Assembly (NCBI GenBank): GCA_029862975.1
Contig: JAOTWP010000003.1
Location: forward strand, 5,904 to 69,903
DNA: 64,000 nt
Reading direction: 5' to 3'
Origin: Acidobacteriota bacterium
Lineage (GTDB): Bacteria > Acidobacteriota > Thermoanaerobaculia > Multivoradales > JAHEKO01
Part shown: positions 26,846 through 37,709 of the stretch, piece by piece
Layout: each line of letters begins with the position of its first letter
Numbering within the stretch: position 1 is the stretch's first letter
Notes under the pieces: generated by a model
What the model was told of the DNA's origin: nothing
Seen by the model: the letters and a program-made list of their open reading frames with translations, nothing else
Databases searched by the model: none
Made by a program: the position numbers and the translations under genes

Positions 26846-30361
<3,516 letters not shown>

Positions 30362-30377
30362 GGGGAGCAAGAGCGTA

Positions 30378-30406
30378 GGCGTAAACAAAGCGTAAGTCAA
30401 GAGCTC
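30378..30406 (-). promoter_or_regulatory. conserved upstream element of dnaE2 (shared with imuA): GAGCTC-N5-TTACGCTTTGTTTACGCC
   Basis: The minus-strand sequence GAGCTCTTGACTTACGCTTTGTTTACGCCTACGCTCTTGCTCCCC-ATG aligns with the imuA upstream region. It also reads as -35 TTGACT, a 17-nt spacer and -10 TACGCT. Confidence 0.55.
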
Positions 30407-30693: not shown

Positions 30694-31404
30694 GTGTCCG
30701 AGGAGCTCCAGCTCCAGTCCGGCAGGGACCCGGGTGCGAACGCCCTCGCGGAGGGGTCGCTGCTTCTGAAAGCGGCTCTGGCCGCGAGGTTCCGGCGTTC
30801 GGCGCGGTGGCTGCTCGCCAGCGCCCTTCTCGCGGCGGCATCGATCGAGGTCTGGCGGCTCTCGGTACCCACGATCATGCCGCTCTTGAGAGCCGCGACG
30901 TGGGCTCTCGTCGCCATGAGTGCGGTCCCTAGAGGCGCCGCGAGCTGGTGGAGAAGCGTCACGCCCGTGGCGTCCGCGAAGGGGCACGAGGTAACGATCC
31001 GTACCCATCTCCTCGCTGGGTCGAAGCTGTCCGGAGCGGCGGCGGAGGAGCGCGCGGCGGTGAGCAAGCGCTCCCTCGTGCTCTTCGTGCCGGCGTTGGC
31101 GCTGTGCCCCACGTTGCTGGTGTGGTCGGGACTATCGGCCATGGACGCTCTCGCCACCGGCGGCCCGGTTCCCCGGTCGCTGGTTTGGGCCATCAGCGTG
31201 CTCTGGTTGCTGAACGCCGCCGGAATGTCCTGGCTCTGGTGGTCGGCCGGGAGGAATGGCGTGGTGCGGCTCGATTCTCGTGACGAGTTCCGCTTCGCCA
31301 TCACCGCAGGTGCCGTCGTGCTGGGAGATTCCAAGAGCGAAGTCCAGGTGCCCGGGCATCTGCTCGACCTGAGCCCTTGGGATCGCGGCGGCGACGCCGG
31401 CTGA
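30694..31404 (+). CDS. hypothetical 4-TM membrane protein with atypical codon usage
   Basis: GTG start. Hydrophobic helices: WLLASALLAAASIEVW, LLRAATWALVAMSAV, LVLFVPALALCPTLLVWSGL, LVWAISVLWLLNAAGMSWLWW. It has several AGA/AGG/CTA/TTG codons that are rare elsewhere in the window. The antisense ORF looks like junk. Confidence 0.5.
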   Translation: MSEELQLQSGRDPGANALAEGSLLLKAALAARFRRSARWLLASALLAAASIEVWRLSVPTIMPLLRAATWALVAMSAVPRGAASWWRSVTPVASAKGHEVTIRTHLLAGSKLSGAAAEERAAVSKRSLVLFVPALALCPTLLVWSGLSAMDALATGGPVPRSLVWAISVLWLLNAAGMSWLWWSAGRNGVVRLDSRDEFRFAITAGAVVLGDSKSEVQVPGHLLDLSPWDRGGDAG

Positions 31405-31583: not shown

Positions 31584-33380
31584 ATGCACTCTCGGACTCG
31601 CTACTCGGTCTTTCTCGCGGCTGCCATGGTGGTGGCCCTCCCGCTGACGCCCCTCGCCGCCCAGGAGGCGGACGACTGGGTCGCTCGCAGCAACGCCAAC
31701 TCGGCTCTCTTGATGGAGGTCTTCGCCCGTTTCGCTCCCGAGGCCGCCGGGCAGTTCGGGGTCGAGGGGCTCGACGAGGAGGTGACGCAGCTGCCGCTCG
31801 ATCTCAACGAGCAGGCCAACGCCATGATCGAAGGCGTGCTCGTCGAGCTGCGCTCCCGGCTCGCCGCCGAGACCCACGCCGCGGTGCGCCAGGATCTCGA
31901 GATCTTGATCGACGCCGCCGAGCAGCAGATCGAGGGCACCGCGATCACGGACAAGTACGAGCTACCCTACTTCAACCTGCCGCAGACGGTCTTCCAGGGA
32001 ATCCGGGCGCTGCTCGACGACCAGGTCGCGGCCGAGCGCCGGCCGGCGGCGCTCGTGCGGCTGCGCCGCTACGCCGGGCTCGAGGAGGGCTACCCGCCGA
32101 TCGCCGAGCAGGCGACGGCGTTCGTGCGGGCGAAGCTCGGCCACGCGGAGCTGCAGGGTCCCTTCAAGGACGACCTGGCGAAGGACCGCTCGAACCGCGC
32201 CCGCTTCATCGACGGCATCCAGCAGCTCTTCGACAAGTACGAGATCGGCGGCTACGAGGAGGCCTATGCCGCCCTGCGCTCCCAGCTCGACGCCTACGAC
32301 GCCTTCCTCGAGAGCGAGCTCGCGCCGCGGGTGCGCGAGGACTTCCGGCTGCCGGCCGAGCTCTACGCCTTCAACCTGAAGGGGGTGGGGATCGACATGC
32401 CCGTGGCGGAGCTCGTGAGCCGGGCCAAGGTCTCCTTCCGCGAGATCCAGAACGAGATGCAGGCCGTGGCCGCCCTCGTCGCCGCCGAACGCGGGCTGCC
32501 GGCGGGCGACTACCGCGACGTGATCGCGGAGCTCAAGAAGGAGCAGCTCGTGGGCGAGGCGATCCTGCCGCACTACCAGGGGCGGATCAAGGATCTCGAG
32601 AAGCTCATCGCCGAGCACGACGTCGTGACGCTGCCGGATCGCGAGATGCGCATCCGGCTGGCGAGCGAGGCCGAGAGCGCGCAGGTGCCGGCGCCGAACA
32701 TGCGGCCGCCGCGGCTCTTCGGCAACACCGGCGAGATGGGCGAGTTCGTGCTGCCGCTGCGCATCCCCGGCGAAGACGGCGAGGAGGTGGGCTTCGACGA
32801 CTTCACCTTCGAGGCGGCGTCGTGGACGCTGACGGCGCACGAGGGGCGGCCCGGCCACGAGCTGCAGTTCGCTTCGATCGTCGAGAAGGGCGTCTCCCAG
32901 GCCCGCGTCGCGTTCGCCTTCAACAGCGTCAACGTCGAGGGCTGGGCGCTCTACCAGGAGGCCGAGATGAAGCCCTACCTGCCGCTCGAGGGCCAGCTGA
33001 TCGCGCTCCAGCACCGCCTCCTGCGTGCCGCGCGCGCCTTCCTCGACCCCGGCCTGCAGCTCGGCATGATGGACCGCGACGAGGCGTACCGGATCCTCGA
33101 AAAGGACGTCGTCATGTCCCACCCGATGGCGATGCAGGAGGTCGAGCGCTACACCTTCTGGGCGCCCGGCCAGGCGACGGCCTACTTCTGCGGCTACACC
33201 CGCCTGATGGAGCTGCGCACCGACGCCGAGCGCCTGCTCGGCGACGCCTTCGACCGCAAGGCCTACCACGACTTCATCCTCGCCCAGGGACTGCTGCCGC
33301 CAGAGCTCCTGCGCAAGGCCGTGATGGAAGACTTCATCGGCCCCCGAGTCGAGCGCGACGAGCCGGCGATGAAAGGCTGA
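31584..33380 (+). CDS. DUF885-family secreted protein (putative metallopeptidase-like)
   Basis: ATG at 31584 with an AGGAGG RBS. Signal peptide (VFLAAAMVVALPLTPLAAQ). HEGRPGHELQF and the WAPGQATAYFCGY region are typical of DUF885. Confidence 0.75.
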   Translation: MHSRTRYSVFLAAAMVVALPLTPLAAQEADDWVARSNANSALLMEVFARFAPEAAGQFGVEGLDEEVTQLPLDLNEQANAMIEGVLVELRSRLAAETHAAVRQDLEILIDAAEQQIEGTAITDKYELPYFNLPQTVFQGIRALLDDQVAAERRPAALVRLRRYAGLEEGYPPIAEQATAFVRAKLGHAELQGPFKDDLAKDRSNRARFIDGIQQLFDKYEIGGYEEAYAALRSQLDAYDAFLESELAPRVREDFRLPAELYAFNLKGVGIDMPVAELVSRAKVSFREIQNEMQAVAALVAAERGLPAGDYRDVIAELKKEQLVGEAILPHYQGRIKDLEKLIAEHDVVTLPDREMRIRLASEAESAQVPAPNMRPPRLFGNTGEMGEFVLPLRIPGEDGEEVGFDDFTFEAASWTLTAHEGRPGHELQFASIVEKGVSQARVAFAFNSVNVEGWALYQEAEMKPYLPLEGQLIALQHRLLRAARAFLDPGLQLGMMDRDEAYRILEKDVVMSHPMAMQEVERYTFWAPGQATAYFCGYTRLMELRTDAERLLGDAFDRKAYHDFILAQGLLPPELLRKAVMEDFIGPRVERDEPAMKG

Positions 33381-33639
33381 AGACGGAGGCGTCGCGGCGC
33401 AGCCGCAATGGAGATGAGGGGAGAGGTCGGAAGCGACAAGGGACGGAGAGACTTCAGGCCAGGGCCGAAAACGGAGACGGCGGGGCGCGATCCAGAGACG
33501 GTGGCCGGGTCGAGTCTGGCCTGAAGGACAGGGTCGTCCGCGGCTTCGGGACGGGGTAGGTTCTGCGGCAGCGACCTTCGGCATCTCCCCAGTCGTCGCG
33601 CTCGCCAGCTCCAGGCTAGTAGTGCCCGCGAGCTCCAGG

Positions 33640-34692
33640 CTAGTAGAGCTCCAGCTGCTCCCCTCGCCGGCGGAACGCCGCGGTGGAGAGCTCGGGACCT
33701 GCGAGCGCCAGGCGGTTGCGGCCGGCGGCGTTCTCGAAGAGAGCGCGGATCTGCGCCGCGTAGGGTCCCTGGCCGCGGGTACGGCGGCCGAAGAGGGTGT
33801 CGTTGATCCGTCCTTGCCGCACGTCGCGGATGCGGCTCGTCACTTTGGTCCGCCGGTCGGGGAAGTTGGATCGCAGCCATGCGTCGAAGAGCCCCGCCAC
33901 GGCGCCCGGCAGGCGGAGCATCAGGTAGTTGGCGAAGGCGGCGCCGGCCTGGGCGGCGGCCGCGAGGATGGCGGGGATCTCGTGGTCGTTGAGGCCCGGG
34001 ATCACGGGCGCCACGTTGACGCCGCAGGGCACGCCGGCCGCCCGCAGCTCGGCGAGCGCCCACAGCCGGTCGCGGGGGTGCGAGGTCCGGGGCTCCATGC
34101 GGCGCGCCAGCTCCGCGTCGAGGGTGGTGATCGACAGGGTGACGGCGGCCGCTCCGTGGTCGGCGAGTGCAGCGAGGAGATCGAGGTCGCGAGTCACGAG
34201 CCGGTTCTTGGTGATGACCGCCGCCGGATTGCGATGCTCCAGCAGCACCTCGAGGCAGCCCCGGGTGAGCGCGAGCCGCCTCTCGACGGGCTGGTAGGGG
34301 TCGGTGACGCCCGAGAGCGCCACCACCTGCGGGGTCCAGCCCGGCCGCCCCAGCTCGCGGCGCAGCAGCTCGGGGGCCCGCTCCTTGACGAGGATCTTCG
34401 TCTCGAAGTCGAGGCCGGCGGAGAGGCCGAGGTATTCGTGGGTCGGTCGTGCGTAGCAGTAGATGCAGCCGTGCTCGCAGCCGCGGTAGGGGTTGAGCGA
34501 GTAGGTGAACGGGACGTCGGGGCTGTCGTTTCTCGACAGGACCGTGCGGCTGTCGTCGCGCAGGAACTCGGTCTCGACCCTCTCGGCAGGCGGCTCCAGC
34601 GGCTCGATCTCGAGCCGCTCGAAGCGGGCCTTGGGGTTGCCGGTGCTCGCCCGGCCGCGCGGCGCGCCGGCGTTAGACTCGGAATCGATCAT
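33640..34692 (-). CDS. radical SAM protein (PA0069 / Rv2578c-like, DNA-repair-photolyase-related family)
   Basis: The CxxxCxxC cluster is CEHGCIYCYA. The N-terminal NPKARFE motif and the overall pattern (VTDPYQPVE, ITKN, SITTLD) are those of this family. Confidence 0.8.
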   Translation of the reverse strand: MIDSESNAGAPRGRASTGNPKARFERLEIEPLEPPAERVETEFLRDDSRTVLSRNDSPDVPFTYSLNPYRGCEHGCIYCYARPTHEYLGLSAGLDFETKILVKERAPELLRRELGRPGWTPQVVALSGVTDPYQPVERRLALTRGCLEVLLEHRNPAAVITKNRLVTRDLDLLAALADHGAAAVTLSITTLDAELARRMEPRTSHPRDRLWALAELRAAGVPCGVNVAPVIPGLNDHEIPAILAAAAQAGAAFANYLMLRLPGAVAGLFDAWLRSNFPDRRTKVTSRIRDVRQGRINDTLFGRRTRGQGPYAAQIRALFENAAGRNRLALAGPELSTAAFRRRGEQLELY

Positions 34693-35380
34693 GTGCGGAC
34701 GCTACACGGTCTCGAACCCGGGCGAGATCCTGCCGGAGCTCGTGGGGGGCGGCGACTCCCCGGAGATCGCGGCCCGCTTCAACGTGGCGCCGACCCAGCT
34801 GGCGCCCGTGGTGATCGCCGGCGAGGACGGCGTGCGGCGGGCGGTGGAGATGCGCTGGGGGCTGGTGCCCTACTGGGCCGAGGGCCCGGAGATCGGCAGC
34901 CGCATGATCAACGCCCGCTCCGAGACGGTGGCCGAAAAGGCGGCGTTTCGCGACAGCTTCCGGCGCCGCCGCTGCCTGGTGGCGGCGGACGGCTTCTACG
35001 AGTGGCAGAAGGTGGCCGGCGGCAAGCAGCCGTTTCTCCTCCGGCTGACGGGCGGCGCCCCCTTCGGCTTCGCCGGCCTGTGGGACCGCTGGCGCGGCCC
35101 CCGGGGGCGGATCCTCGAGTCGTTCACGATTCTCACGACGACCCCCAACGAGCTGGTGGCGCCGATCCACGACCGCATGCCCGTGATCCTCGCTCCCGAG
35201 GGCCGCGACCTCTGGCTCGACGAGGCGGCGAGCGGCGAAGCCCTCCAGGGGGTTCTGGGGCCGTACGCCGCGGCGGCGATGGAGGCGATAGCGGTCAGCG
35301 ACTACGTCAGTAATCCGGCCCACGACTCGCTCCGGTGCATGCAGCCGCTGCTGCCGCCCGCCCAGGGGACGCTCTTCTAG
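34691..35380 (+). CDS. yedK: SOS response-associated peptidase (SRAP / YedK family, abasic-site DNA-protein crosslink sensor)
   Basis: It starts MCGRY (catalytic Cys2). Motifs: RFNVAPTQ, RWGLVPYW, INARSETV, RRCLVAADGFYEW, FAGLWD, SFTILTT, IHDRMPVIL. Confidence 0.9.
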   Translation: MCGRYTVSNPGEILPELVGGGDSPEIAARFNVAPTQLAPVVIAGEDGVRRAVEMRWGLVPYWAEGPEIGSRMINARSETVAEKAAFRDSFRRRRCLVAADGFYEWQKVAGGKQPFLLRLTGGAPFGFAGLWDRWRGPRGRILESFTILTTTPNELVAPIHDRMPVILAPEGRDLWLDEAASGEALQGVLGPYAAAAMEAIAVSDYVSNPAHDSLRCMQPLLPPAQGTLF

Positions 35381-35393
35381 CCGCTCGCCGGCG

Positions 35394-36902
35394 CTAGTCA
35401 TACATGCCGTCGGCGAACCAGCTCTCGCTGCGGCGATCGCGGTAGATGCGGTAGATGCCGCCGTCGCTGAGCTCGACGTCCCAGTACTCGCGGTCGACCG
35501 GCCGCTCGTTCCACCAGCCCTCCTCCAGCGCCCAGGGGCCGGAGGCGACGCGCACCGTGCCGTCGATCCGCGGCCGGCCCCGGGTGGCCTCCGTGACCGG
35601 CGTCGCCACGCGGCGCGGCCGCGGGTCGACGAGGACCTCGAGGGGGATCGGGGGCCGCAGGGTCCGCACCGCGAGCAGGCCGTAGCCCTCGGGCTCGGGC
35701 TCGCGGACGTCCGGGGGCGGCGGTGGCGCGAAGGGCTCGAGCCGGAAGTCCTCCGGGCGGTGATCGGTACCGCGGCGGGGAGCGCCGGCGCGCTCCGGGC
35801 CGAGCAGGCTGAAGAGGCGCGCCAGGGTCGTCGCCAGGCGGTCGGGCGAGAGAGCGGTGGGGCCGAAGAGCGTGAGCTGCGCCGCGCGCGGCCGGTCGGG
35901 GTGGCCGCGCAGGGTGAAGCCGGCGACCGCCGCTCCCGGGGGATGCGCCTCGACGTCGAGCTTGACGAGGGTAAGGAGCGTCTTGACGTCGCGCGTCGGC
36001 GCCGGCAGCACGACGCTGCGCTCGTGGGTGCCCTCGGGCTCGAGGCGGAGCGAGGTCTCCAGACGGAGGCAGGCCAGGCCGTGCCGCGCCATGCGCTCGC
36101 ACATGCGGTCGAGGGCGGCGCGCGCCACGAAGAGAAAGGGCTCGAGCGTGGTCAGGGGCCATTCGAGGGTCATGCCTTCGTCGAAGGTCGCGGCGGGCCG
36201 GTGGGGGACGAGCGGATGCGGGTCGATGCCGCGGGCCTGGCGGTGGAGCCCCTGCCCGGCCTCCCCGAACCGGCTGGCGATCTCGTCTTTCGGCAGCTCG
36301 GCGAACTGCCCGATCGAGCGGATGCCCCAGCGTGCGAGCCGGTCGAGCACGTGCGCCTCGGCCAGCAGGCGGGTCAGGGGCAGGGGGGCGAGGAAGCCCG
36401 CCTCTTCGCCGGCCGGCACGACGGTGGGGGAGTCGGCCTGCTCGGCGGCGATGTGGGCCGCGAGCTTCGAGCCCGCGATGCCGGCGCGCGCCGCCATGCG
36501 CGCCCGCTCCGCGGCCTGGATCAAGGCGCTTCCGAGCTCGTGGTCGCGCGGCCAGTGGCGCTCCAGGCCGGCGAGATCCAGGTAGACGACCCCCCGGCCG
36601 GCGTTCTCCACCCGCGGCGAGAAGATCTCCGCGATCTCCAGGAGGCTCTGCTGGGCGGCGGACTCGCACGCCGCGTCGCGGCCGCGCACCGCGACCTTGG
36701 GCAGCAGCGCCCGCGCCTGGGCAAGCGACATTCCGCGGCGTATGCCGGCCCGGCGGGCGCGCCGGCTGGCCGCGCTCACCCGCGCGGCCGAGCCGTTGCC
36801 CGCGAGCAGGACCAGGGCCTCGCCGGCGAGCTCCGGCTCGCTGCGCAGGCGGGCCGCGAGCGGGAAGAGGGGCACCCGAAGGCAGGCGATCCGGTGGCTC
36901 AT
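35394..36902 (-). CDS. imuB: ImuB, Y-family-polymerase-like mutasome subunit
   Basis: Motifs: IACLRVPLFPLAARLR, GMSLAQARAL, VVYLDLAGLERHW. It lacks the canonical catalytic acidic triad context. It sits immediately downstream of imuA with a 12-nt gap. Confidence 0.85.
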   Translation of the reverse strand: MSHRIACLRVPLFPLAARLRSEPELAGEALVLLAGNGSAARVSAASRRARRAGIRRGMSLAQARALLPKVAVRGRDAACESAAQQSLLEIAEIFSPRVENAGRGVVYLDLAGLERHWPRDHELGSALIQAAERARMAARAGIAGSKLAAHIAAEQADSPTVVPAGEEAGFLAPLPLTRLLAEAHVLDRLARWGIRSIGQFAELPKDEIASRFGEAGQGLHRQARGIDPHPLVPHRPAATFDEGMTLEWPLTTLEPFLFVARAALDRMCERMARHGLACLRLETSLRLEPEGTHERSVVLPAPTRDVKTLLTLVKLDVEAHPPGAAVAGFTLRGHPDRPRAAQLTLFGPTALSPDRLATTLARLFSLLGPERAGAPRRGTDHRPEDFRLEPFAPPPPPDVREPEPEGYGLLAVRTLRPPIPLEVLVDPRPRRVATPVTEATRGRPRIDGTVRVASGPWALEEGWWNERPVDREYWDVELSDGGIYRIYRDRRSESWFADGMYD

Positions 36903-36914
36903 CGCGCCTCCGCG

Positions 36915-37643
36915 CTACCGGCCGGGGGCTCGCGATCGCCAGGTGAACGGCAGGGACGCGACGGGCGCCCGCCCGAGCGCCTTGACGAGCTGCAACCGGG
37001 TGCAGACGGCGCTCAAGAGCCTGGGAGCGCGGCCGGTCCCCTGCCACCGGGCACCCGTCTTGCTCGACTCGACGACGACCTGCGCGGTGGTGCCGCTGGC
37101 GCGGTAGGGGCTCGAGACGAGCAGGATGCCCTGACGCTGCCGCGCCGTTCGCGCCAGCCGGATCCATGACGCCTCCGGGCCGCGTCCTCCGGGAACGGGC
37201 GGCGAGCCCAAGTCGAGAGCGACGAGCGGAAATCCGGCGTTCAAGAGCAGCTCGGTCGCGATCAGAGCGGACTTCAGGTGCTCCGGGCGAGCCCACAGCA
37301 GGCGCGACAGATCGATTCCGGCGTCGGCGGCGGCCCGCGGGTCCAGCCCGTCGCCGAGATCGACCAGCGCCGTCGTCTCGCCGCGGCGGGTGAACGCGAC
37401 GAGGGTCTGCAGGAGGATGGAGAAGCGGCCGCTCGAGCGGCGCCCGACGATCTCGATCAACCCCCCCGGTTCGAGGCCGCCCGCCAGCAGCTCGTCCAGG
37501 GGACGGACGCGGCTGGCCCGCGAGCTGTCGGCCGGCGCTTGCCGCGGAGCGAGCGTACGGCCGGTCCGCAGCGCGGGATGGATCCGGCGGAGGGCGAGCG
37601 GGGTGGGCGCCATGGCGAGGGCATTCGGGGGAGCGGGGCTCAT
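36915..37643 (-). CDS. imuA: ImuA, RecA-fold/SulA-like mutasome subunit
   Basis: LDELLAGGLEPGGLIEIVGRRSSGRFSIL (degenerate P-loop) and WIRLARTARQRQGILLVSS are typical of ImuA. ATG at 37643; the alternative is 37613. The track start at 37712 runs through an upstream terminator. Confidence 0.8.
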   Translation of the reverse strand: MSPAPPNALAMAPTPLALRRIHPALRTGRTLAPRQAPADSSRASRVRPLDELLAGGLEPGGLIEIVGRRSSGRFSILLQTLVAFTRRGETTALVDLGDGLDPRAAADAGIDLSRLLWARPEHLKSALIATELLLNAGFPLVALDLGSPPVPGGRGPEASWIRLARTARQRQGILLVSSPYRASGTTAQVVVESSKTGARWQGTGRAPRLLSAVCTRLQLVKALGRAPVASLPFTWRSRAPGR

Positions 37644-37655
37644 GGTGAGGGCAAA

Positions 37656-37685
37656 GGTGAAAACAAGGCGTAATTCGAGCTCGAA
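37656..37685 (-). promoter_or_regulatory. conserved upstream element of imuA (shared with dnaE2), including the 12-bp palindrome TTCGAGCTCGAA
   Basis: The minus-strand sequence TTCGAGCTCGAATTACGCCTTGTTTTCACCTTTGCCCTCACC-ATG contains the direct repeat TTACGC-N5-TTTCAC with an 11-bp period. Confidence 0.55.
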
Positions 37686-37709
37686 AAATCGGGCGGCACG
37701 CGCCGCCCG
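37684..37709 (-). terminator. rho-independent terminator of the acidic lipoprotein gene
   Basis: On the minus strand: CGGGCGGC-GCGT-GCCGCCCG followed by ATTTTT, 15 nt after the TAG at 37724-37726. Confidence 0.7.

Follow-up and report, generated by a model that had tools for sequence, protein, structure and literature searches.

The two transcription units of a split mutasome, imuA-imuB and dnaE2, are preceded by closely similar DNA in the window analysed here (the whole 64,000-nt stretch of an Acidobacteriota contig). This raises the question of what the shared sequence is and which regulator would act on it. The first-pass annotation had taken it for a candidate LexA site of non-canonical, direct-repeat sequence, or for a shared damage-inducible promoter. 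Evidence from lexA promoters, from the imuA and dnaE2 genes of relatives and from the type of LexA that these genomes encode supports this proposal, and we consider it likely that the class Thermoanaerobaculia uses this element as its LexA (SOS) operator, a direct repeat placed so that a bound repressor would block the promoter.

The shared element and its setting

The identities first given to imuA, imuB and dnaE2 were confirmed by family matches (NF004225 for dnaE2, IMS and IMS_C for imuB, a RecA fold for imuA). The genes of the region, together with a hairpin that precedes imuA, are arranged as follows:

26846-30361, minus strand: dnaE2, error-prone DNA polymerase (NF004225, 1248 bits; Pfam domains)
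30694-31404, plus strand: predicted membrane protein gene (GC3 profile and translation; no Pfam match)
31584-33380, plus strand: DUF885 gene
33640-34692, minus strand: PA0069/Rv2578c-type radical SAM gene (NF033668, 449 bits), divergent from the SRAP gene
34691-35380, plus strand: SRAP (SOS-response-associated peptidase) gene, product starting MCGR (PF02586, E 5e-69; translation; GC3 profile)
35394-36902, minus strand: imuB, Y-family polymerase-like (Pfam IMS and IMS_C), downstream of imuA in one unit
36915-37643, minus strand: imuA, RecA-fold ImuA'-like (Pfam RecA, 42 bits; NCBIfam ImuA, 38.6 bits, below the cut-off)
37690-37709, minus strand: terminator-like hairpin and T-run of the gene upstream of imuA

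The hairpin isolates imuA from its upstream neighbour, and a separate transcription unit thus begins with imuA. Homology of imuA with its relatives begins near residue 11, and translation may start at ATG 37643 or at the in-frame ATG 37613, 30 nt further on. imuB and the SRAP gene meet head-on, and the DUF885 and membrane protein genes lie between the radical SAM gene and dnaE2; read-through from imuAB into dnaE2 is not possible because of these intervening opposite-strand genes. The 332-nt spacer between dnaE2 and the divergent membrane protein gene holds the dnaE2 copy of the element. Two long minus-strand ORFs (31962-33584, 540 aa; 34673-35401, 242 aa) were rejected as spurious, having no family matches and the wrong codon-position G+C; they are products of the high G+C content, and the real genes here are the plus-strand DUF885 and SRAP genes.

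The start codons of the SRAP gene (plus strand, ATG 34691) and the radical SAM gene (minus strand, ATG 34692-34690) overlap in a CATG at window positions 34690-34693, so that the promoter of each gene must lie inside the other. TAGACT is found 11 nt before the SRAP ATG and TAGCGT 6 nt before that of the radical SAM gene, an arrangement that suggests a back-to-back pair of leaderless genes.

Both of the upstream sequences on which the first-pass annotation had based a shared dnaE2/imuA block are present on the minus strand, and pairwise alignment confined the likeness of the two regions to ~45 nt. The element common to them is 18 nt long, TTACGCyNNNgTTwNCGCC, and lies 12-16 nt 5' of both ATGs. 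Read on the minus strand, the DNA upstream of dnaE2 is GAGCTC-TTGACT-TACGCTTTGTTTACGCC-TACGCT-CTTGCTCCCC-ATG and that upstream of imuA is TTCGAGCTCGAA-TTACGCCTTGTTTTCACC-TTTGCCCTCACC-ATG. Their parts are:

30372-30377, minus strand: TACGCT, -10-like hexamer (TAnnnT) of dnaE2, 17 nt past the -35 and abutting the operator
30378-30395, minus strand: predicted dnaE2 operator core TTACGCTTTGTTTACGCC, two TTACGC(C/T) heptads with an 11-bp period
30395-30400, minus strand: TTGACT, putative -35-like hexamer for dnaE2, sharing its last T with operator base 1
30406-30401, minus strand: GAGCTC hexamer upstream of dnaE2
37656-37673, minus strand: predicted imuA operator core TTACGCCTTGTTTTCACC
37674-37685, strandless: 12-bp palindrome TTCGAGCTCGAA, adjoining the imuA operator

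Across the order, the consensus of imuA and dnaE2 sites is TTACGCC-TTGT-TTACGCC, a perfect 7-nt direct repeat; the 11-bp direct-repeat architecture originally described for the two copies in the window thus extends to the sites of relatives at these genes. Invariant or near-invariant positions are T1 T2 A3 C4 G5 C6, T11 T12 W13 and C15 G16 C17 C18. The second half-site reads TTACCGCC in most lexA sites and TTTACGCC in imuA and dnaE2 sites. In many lexA promoters this TTACCGCC half-site is one base longer, which makes the repeat less exact at lexA, and given this one-base difference the exact LexA contacts are unclear. In the relatives G030 and G038 the element grows to 3-5 heptads in 11-bp phase.

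A palindromic reading of the element was rejected, since its reverse complement gives no match and its conservation is asymmetric. GAGCTC and the palindrome TTCGAGCTCGAA were likewise rejected as operator parts, neither being kept in four same-genus relatives (G001-G004). The palindrome noted earlier at the imuA copy is present but lies outside the conserved element, and both it and the GAGCTC hexamer are probably incidental.

The first base of the element is the final T of the -35 hexamer (TTGAC|T), and TAnnnT follows it without a gap, which makes the element itself the 17-nt promoter spacer. TTGAC stands directly 5' and TAnnnT directly 3' of the element in most sites of relatives; we infer the role of these hexamers from their sequence. 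A repressor bound in this overlapping position would be predicted to block RNA polymerase. The imuA copy of this genome has no recognisable -35 (TTGAC) or -10 (TAnnnT) in the usual places. A simple sigma-70 scan called neither the dnaE2 nor the imuA promoter, since the -10 boxes conform to no more than TAnnnT (3 of 6 positions against TATAAT at dnaE2).

Start codons lie close to these predicted promoters. In 34 of 42 distinct lexA promoters the start codon lies 12-15 nt past the end of the operator, equivalent to 6-9 nt past the -10, and no Shine-Dalgarno sequence was found in those leaders. The dnaE2 ATG at 30361 lies 10 nt past its -10, and the N-terminus MYRQPP is common to the congeners at the same distance from the operator. 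Both the near-leaderless layout and the 30361 start proposed in the first-pass annotation are upheld by these comparisons, and the transcripts are probably leaderless or have a very short leader.

lexA and the sites of the genome

The genome (4.49 Mb in 309 contigs, 71.6% G+C) encodes one lexA, which matches TIGR00498 with 182.7 bits (cut-off 110.95). Its product combines a winged-helix N-terminal domain (PF01726) with an S24 peptidase domain (PF00717). The Ala-Gly cleavage site (AAG), the serine of GDSM and the lysine of TLKRY align with the E. coli and T. maritima LexA structures, and by this alignment the protein is a bona fide LexA with its cleavage site and Ser/Lys dyad intact. Its promoter, TTGTCT-TACGGCTCGTTTTCACC-TAAGGT-GCGGGC-ATG (also written CTCTTGTC-TTACGGCTCGTTTTCACC-TAAGGT-GCGGGC-ATG), carries the same element as imuA and dnaE2. 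Absence of the motif from the lexA promoter had been named at the outset as an argument against a LexA site; here the element fills the spacer of that promoter, the layout that would be expected if LexA regulated its own gene. The strict pattern TTACG-N4-GTTTWCRCC has exactly three matches in the genome, at imuA, dnaE2 and lexA.

To score sites, we used an 18-nt matrix trained solely on the lexA promoters of relatives, so that its performance at other genes is independent of the training set. Five sites stand apart in the scan of the genome, the next best scoring 15.5 bits:

dnaE2: 27.5 bits, the best in the genome
HD-GYP gene, contig C217:3341-3358: 25.9 bits
DinB-family gene, contig C302:25423-25440, opposite orientation: 24.8 bits
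imuA: 23.7 bits
lexA: 18.6 bits

Four sites in the genome score 23 bits or above, a level that no site reached in six first-order Markov genomes, so that chance does not account for these four. At 18 bits or above, the mean is 1.5 sites per random genome of this kind. A score such as the 18.6 bits of the lexA site is thus reached about 1.5 times per random genome, and the weight of this site comes from its position and orthology, not from its score. Overall, the element is shared by several DNA-damage genes and is rare elsewhere in the genome.

The C302 site (TTACGCTCCGTTTACGCT) lies 33 nt 5' of a DinB-family gene (PF05163), in reverse orientation and 3' of a TAGAGT box. Read on its own strand, the site precedes TACTCT, then 8 nt and then the ATG of a doubtful 62-aa ORF, which GC3 did not distinguish from the overlapping antisense gene. 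The C217 site is followed by ATTGTAGCA and lies 58 nt 5' of an HD-GYP phosphodiesterase gene; in the congeners G001 and G004 a similar site precedes an amino-acid permease gene. Neither the HD-GYP site nor the permease sites have an obvious link to DNA damage.

Enrichment of the motif at recA and SRAP genes, suggested earlier as a check, is not seen. Pattern and matrix scans found no site in the upstream region of recA in this genome, and only 2 of 30 relatives have one (G036, locus L254, 23.3 bits; G039, locus L236, 19.3 bits). No operator was found upstream of the SRAP gene, where no matrix match reached 11 bits, or upstream of the PA0069/Rv2578c-type radical SAM gene. recA is usually a core SOS gene, and its position mostly outside the regulon counts against the LexA reading. 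The recA operator copies of G036 and G039 lie ~190-290 nt before the gene, and control of recA by the element appears to be lineage-specific.

Conservation, LexA type and competing explanations

The lexA promoters of 30 same-order relatives follow a single layout, TTGAC-TTACGC-N4-TTwNCGCC-TAnnnT, with an ATG or GTG 6-9 nt further on, and named Thermoanaerobaculia assemblies in public records show it too. In total, the element stands between TTGAC and TAnnnT at 72 of the 75 Thermoanaerobaculia lexA loci. With the lexA-trained matrix, a sense-strand site of 17.9-27.5 bits was found at imuA in 28 of the 29 relatives with upstream DNA, and one of 17.4-27.8 bits at dnaE2 in 26 of 27. The sole clear dnaE2 exception is G023, in which dnaE2 follows directly 3' of imuB, without a site, and can thus do without a separate promoter.

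A sequence-only model of the promoter-plus-operator block (R1) gave 2-16 matches per genome in most relatives, centred on SOS genes. Peripheral sites in these genomes precede XRE regulator genes, further imuA fragments and, in two congeners, the permease gene; LexA regulons usually have a variable periphery of this kind. Among 200 sampled genomes of the phylum, strong matches (E < ~1e-3) were confined to the class Thermoanaerobaculia and other Acidobacteriota classes gave no match to the element model, in a less sensitive search that scored 37 candidates per genome and possibly missed weak sites outside the class.

The same periphery takes in several kinds of genes downstream of operator copies in individual relatives. 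These include fpg/nei glycosylase genes in G010 (L210) and G032 (L221) and, in G026 (L222) only, mraZ of the cell-division cluster. A conserved XRE-family HTH gene (~165-190 aa) follows strong copies in G037 (L179), G040 (L204) and G030 (L214), and could be a LexA-controlled secondary regulator. G029 (L212, L215) and G008 (L219, L220) contain several operator copies with near-identical flanks, those of G029 standing 5' of transposase-like genes whose products carry DYDSPWKDILE in the N-terminus; in these two genomes the element may be carried along by mobile DNA or may control it.

Genomes that carry the element share a LexA recognition-helix signature, FG[FY]SSYGT[AV][HY]KHLKLL. The LexAs of Holophagales, Patescibacteria, Firmicutes-like bacteria and Bdellovibrio differ at this helix, and their lexA promoters carry other sequences. 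Additionally, two members of the same family as our genome gave no convincing match to the R1 model: G005 (best E 0.27) and G017 (best E 0.22). G005 encodes a LexA of another type (PPTVREVQRHFRFRSVESARAHLEAL) as the first gene of a lexA-imuA-imuB cassette (L230, G005:C345). TTGACA and the palindrome AACAGAC-GTTT-GTCTGTT stand 5' of this cassette; the genome is without the TTACGCC element and without native-type imuA and dnaE2. G017 has a foreign LexA of the G005 type alongside a diverged native one, and the promoter of the native one holds a variant with altered spacing. The foreign-type LexAs of both genomes (the second LexA in G017) have other sequences upstream and no element. In these comparisons the element follows the class-specific LexA type, and the motif appears to change with the LexA DNA-binding domain.

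At the Holophagales lexA loci L080-L082, repeated words of the type CCGAAT(T/G)(A/T)AAT occur just before the ATG, with no TTACGCC element. These words are possibly yet another LexA motif within the phylum.

If the element is indeed the LexA operator of the class, a LexA dimer on the spacer would keep RNA polymerase off the lexA, imuA(-imuB) and dnaE2 promoters, and RecA-stimulated self-cleavage of LexA after DNA damage would release all three units together; both steps are taken over from established LexA biology. The mutasome genes would be co-induced though dnaE2 lies 5 kb from imuAB, past opposite-strand genes, and transcripts would begin on the start codon or only a few bases away from it. 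The runs that contain this DNA comprise only sediment metagenomes and one low-share RNA contig set. We infer physical LexA binding, repression, damage induction and transcription start sites for what would be a new sequence variant, a lineage-specific LexA operator.

A second reading is that the element is the operator of some other DNA-damage regulator, for example an XRE repressor with a partner protease, which also controls lexA. The DdrO/IrrE system of Deinococcus has this composition. The strong sites before XRE-type HTH genes in G037, G040 and G030 would fit such a regulator, as would the fact that recA is mostly outside the regulon. None of the five sites in our genome has an XRE gene beside it, however, and the one gene with the element throughout the class is lexA. 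The class-specific motif goes with the class-specific recognition helix of LexA, and where the LexA type has been replaced, in G005, the element is gone. On balance, we regard control by another regulator as improbable.

We judge it less probable still that the element is a specialised promoter recognised by some alternative sigma factor, or a spacer conserved as part of the core promoter, and not a repressor site. Its invariable position between -35-like and -10-like hexamers at fixed spacing would be in keeping with a promoter element, and in some relatives the second heptad can act as a -10 (TACGCT, G001 and G004). The flanking TTGAC and TAnnnT are nevertheless ordinary and suit the housekeeping sigma factor, and a genome contains only ~3-16 sites, centred on SOS genes. 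The heptad is itself repeated, in arrays of 3-5 in 11-bp phase, and a reversed copy lies beside the DinB-family gene; a transcription-factor operator accounts for these features better than a sigma-factor element does. The element furthermore follows the type of LexA. Finally, chance resemblance or a recent local duplication without function, to which the restriction of the likeness to ~45 nt and the flanking GAGCTC specific to this genome might point, is scarcely credible given orthologous sites at three genes across the entire order and class and the lack of any site of at least 23 bits in random genomes.

Relation to other LexA motifs and significance

No published LexA motif for Thermoanaerobaculia turned up in full-text literature searches. 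Direct-repeat LexA boxes are known from other lineages: GTTC-N7-GTTC is given as the box of the Alphaproteobacteria and also of Acidobacterium capsulatum (Mazon et al. 2006, via PMC7739468; PMC8565304; PMC9578287). The predicted operator of Thermoanaerobaculia resembles this box in being a direct repeat, TTAC-N7-TTAC having the same 11-bp period, and in its occurrence at lexA and imuA-imuB-dnaE2 genes, whose control is predicted here. It does not belong to that motif family, since the half-site is TTACGCC here and GTTC there. Furthermore, the LexA is not of the alphaproteobacterial type, and recA is mostly outside its control. The nearest outgroup LexAs, at 40-50% identity, are those of Holophagales, Patescibacteria and Firmicutes-like bacteria.

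The LexA motif of Patescibacteria is reported to be a further direct-repeat case (Sanchez-Osuna et al. 2017, cited in PMC7739468). At the Saccharibacteria lexA loci L090-L113 we found TTGACA-CT(T/A)CGGnnTTTGTTCGG-TAAGCT, that is, CT(T/A)CGG-N6-TTCGG within the spacer. This repeat agrees with the Thermoanaerobaculia element in promoter position and 11-bp period, has a comparable T-A/T-C-G core, and is close to the lexA site of our genome, TTACGG-N6-TTCAC. The consensus is TTCGG in Patescibacteria but TTACGCC in Thermoanaerobaculia, and the LexAs are ~42% identical with different recognition helices. It is conceivable, if rather doubtful, that the Thermoanaerobaculia and Saccharibacteria repeats descend from one ancestral direct-repeat operator and that direct-repeat recognition is old in a broad LexA clade. 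If this were true, direct-repeat recognition would not be a set of independent inventions, and the phased arrays of 3-5 heptads in some relatives would point to two or more LexA dimers binding cooperatively on the same face of the helix.

In Balneolaeota, binding of LexA to the motif TTACACATATTTTWTACATA was verified by gel shift, and recA is in the regulon (PMC7739468). Both this motif and ours are lineage-specific direct repeats with TTAC-type half-sites, found by comparative genomics and associated with translesion polymerases. They differ in spacing and sequence, and in the kind of support: gel shift for Balneolaeota, sequence comparison here. The arrangement of the genes is shared with mycobacteria, where imuA'-imuB and dnaE2 are likewise split into separate units with a common damage-responsive site (predicted in our case); the ImuA protein here is RecA-fold and ImuA'-like. 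Mycobacteria use a palindromic box related to GAAC-N4-GTTC, plus PafBC, whereas the operator proposed here is a direct repeat predicted to fill the promoter spacer of leaderless genes.

Few bacterial regulators have had their binding motif rewritten as many times as LexA, and every further motif adds to what can be learned about joint change in a global repressor and its operators. Within one family, G005 provides a natural replacement for comparison, in which a foreign LexA is found with a palindrome. The predicted operator would also be a clean system in which to study the recognition of head-to-tail half-sites by a LexA dimer, in a promoter where the operator is the entire spacer and the transcript is probably leaderless. 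The regulon it outlines is a minimal one, built around lexA and the split mutasome (imuAB, dnaE2) and mostly without recA. More generally, the element would give the Thermoanaerobaculia, a class that is widespread in soils and sediments and has hardly any cultured members, a usable SOS box, with which the DNA-damage regulon of the class would become readable from metagenome-assembled genomes.
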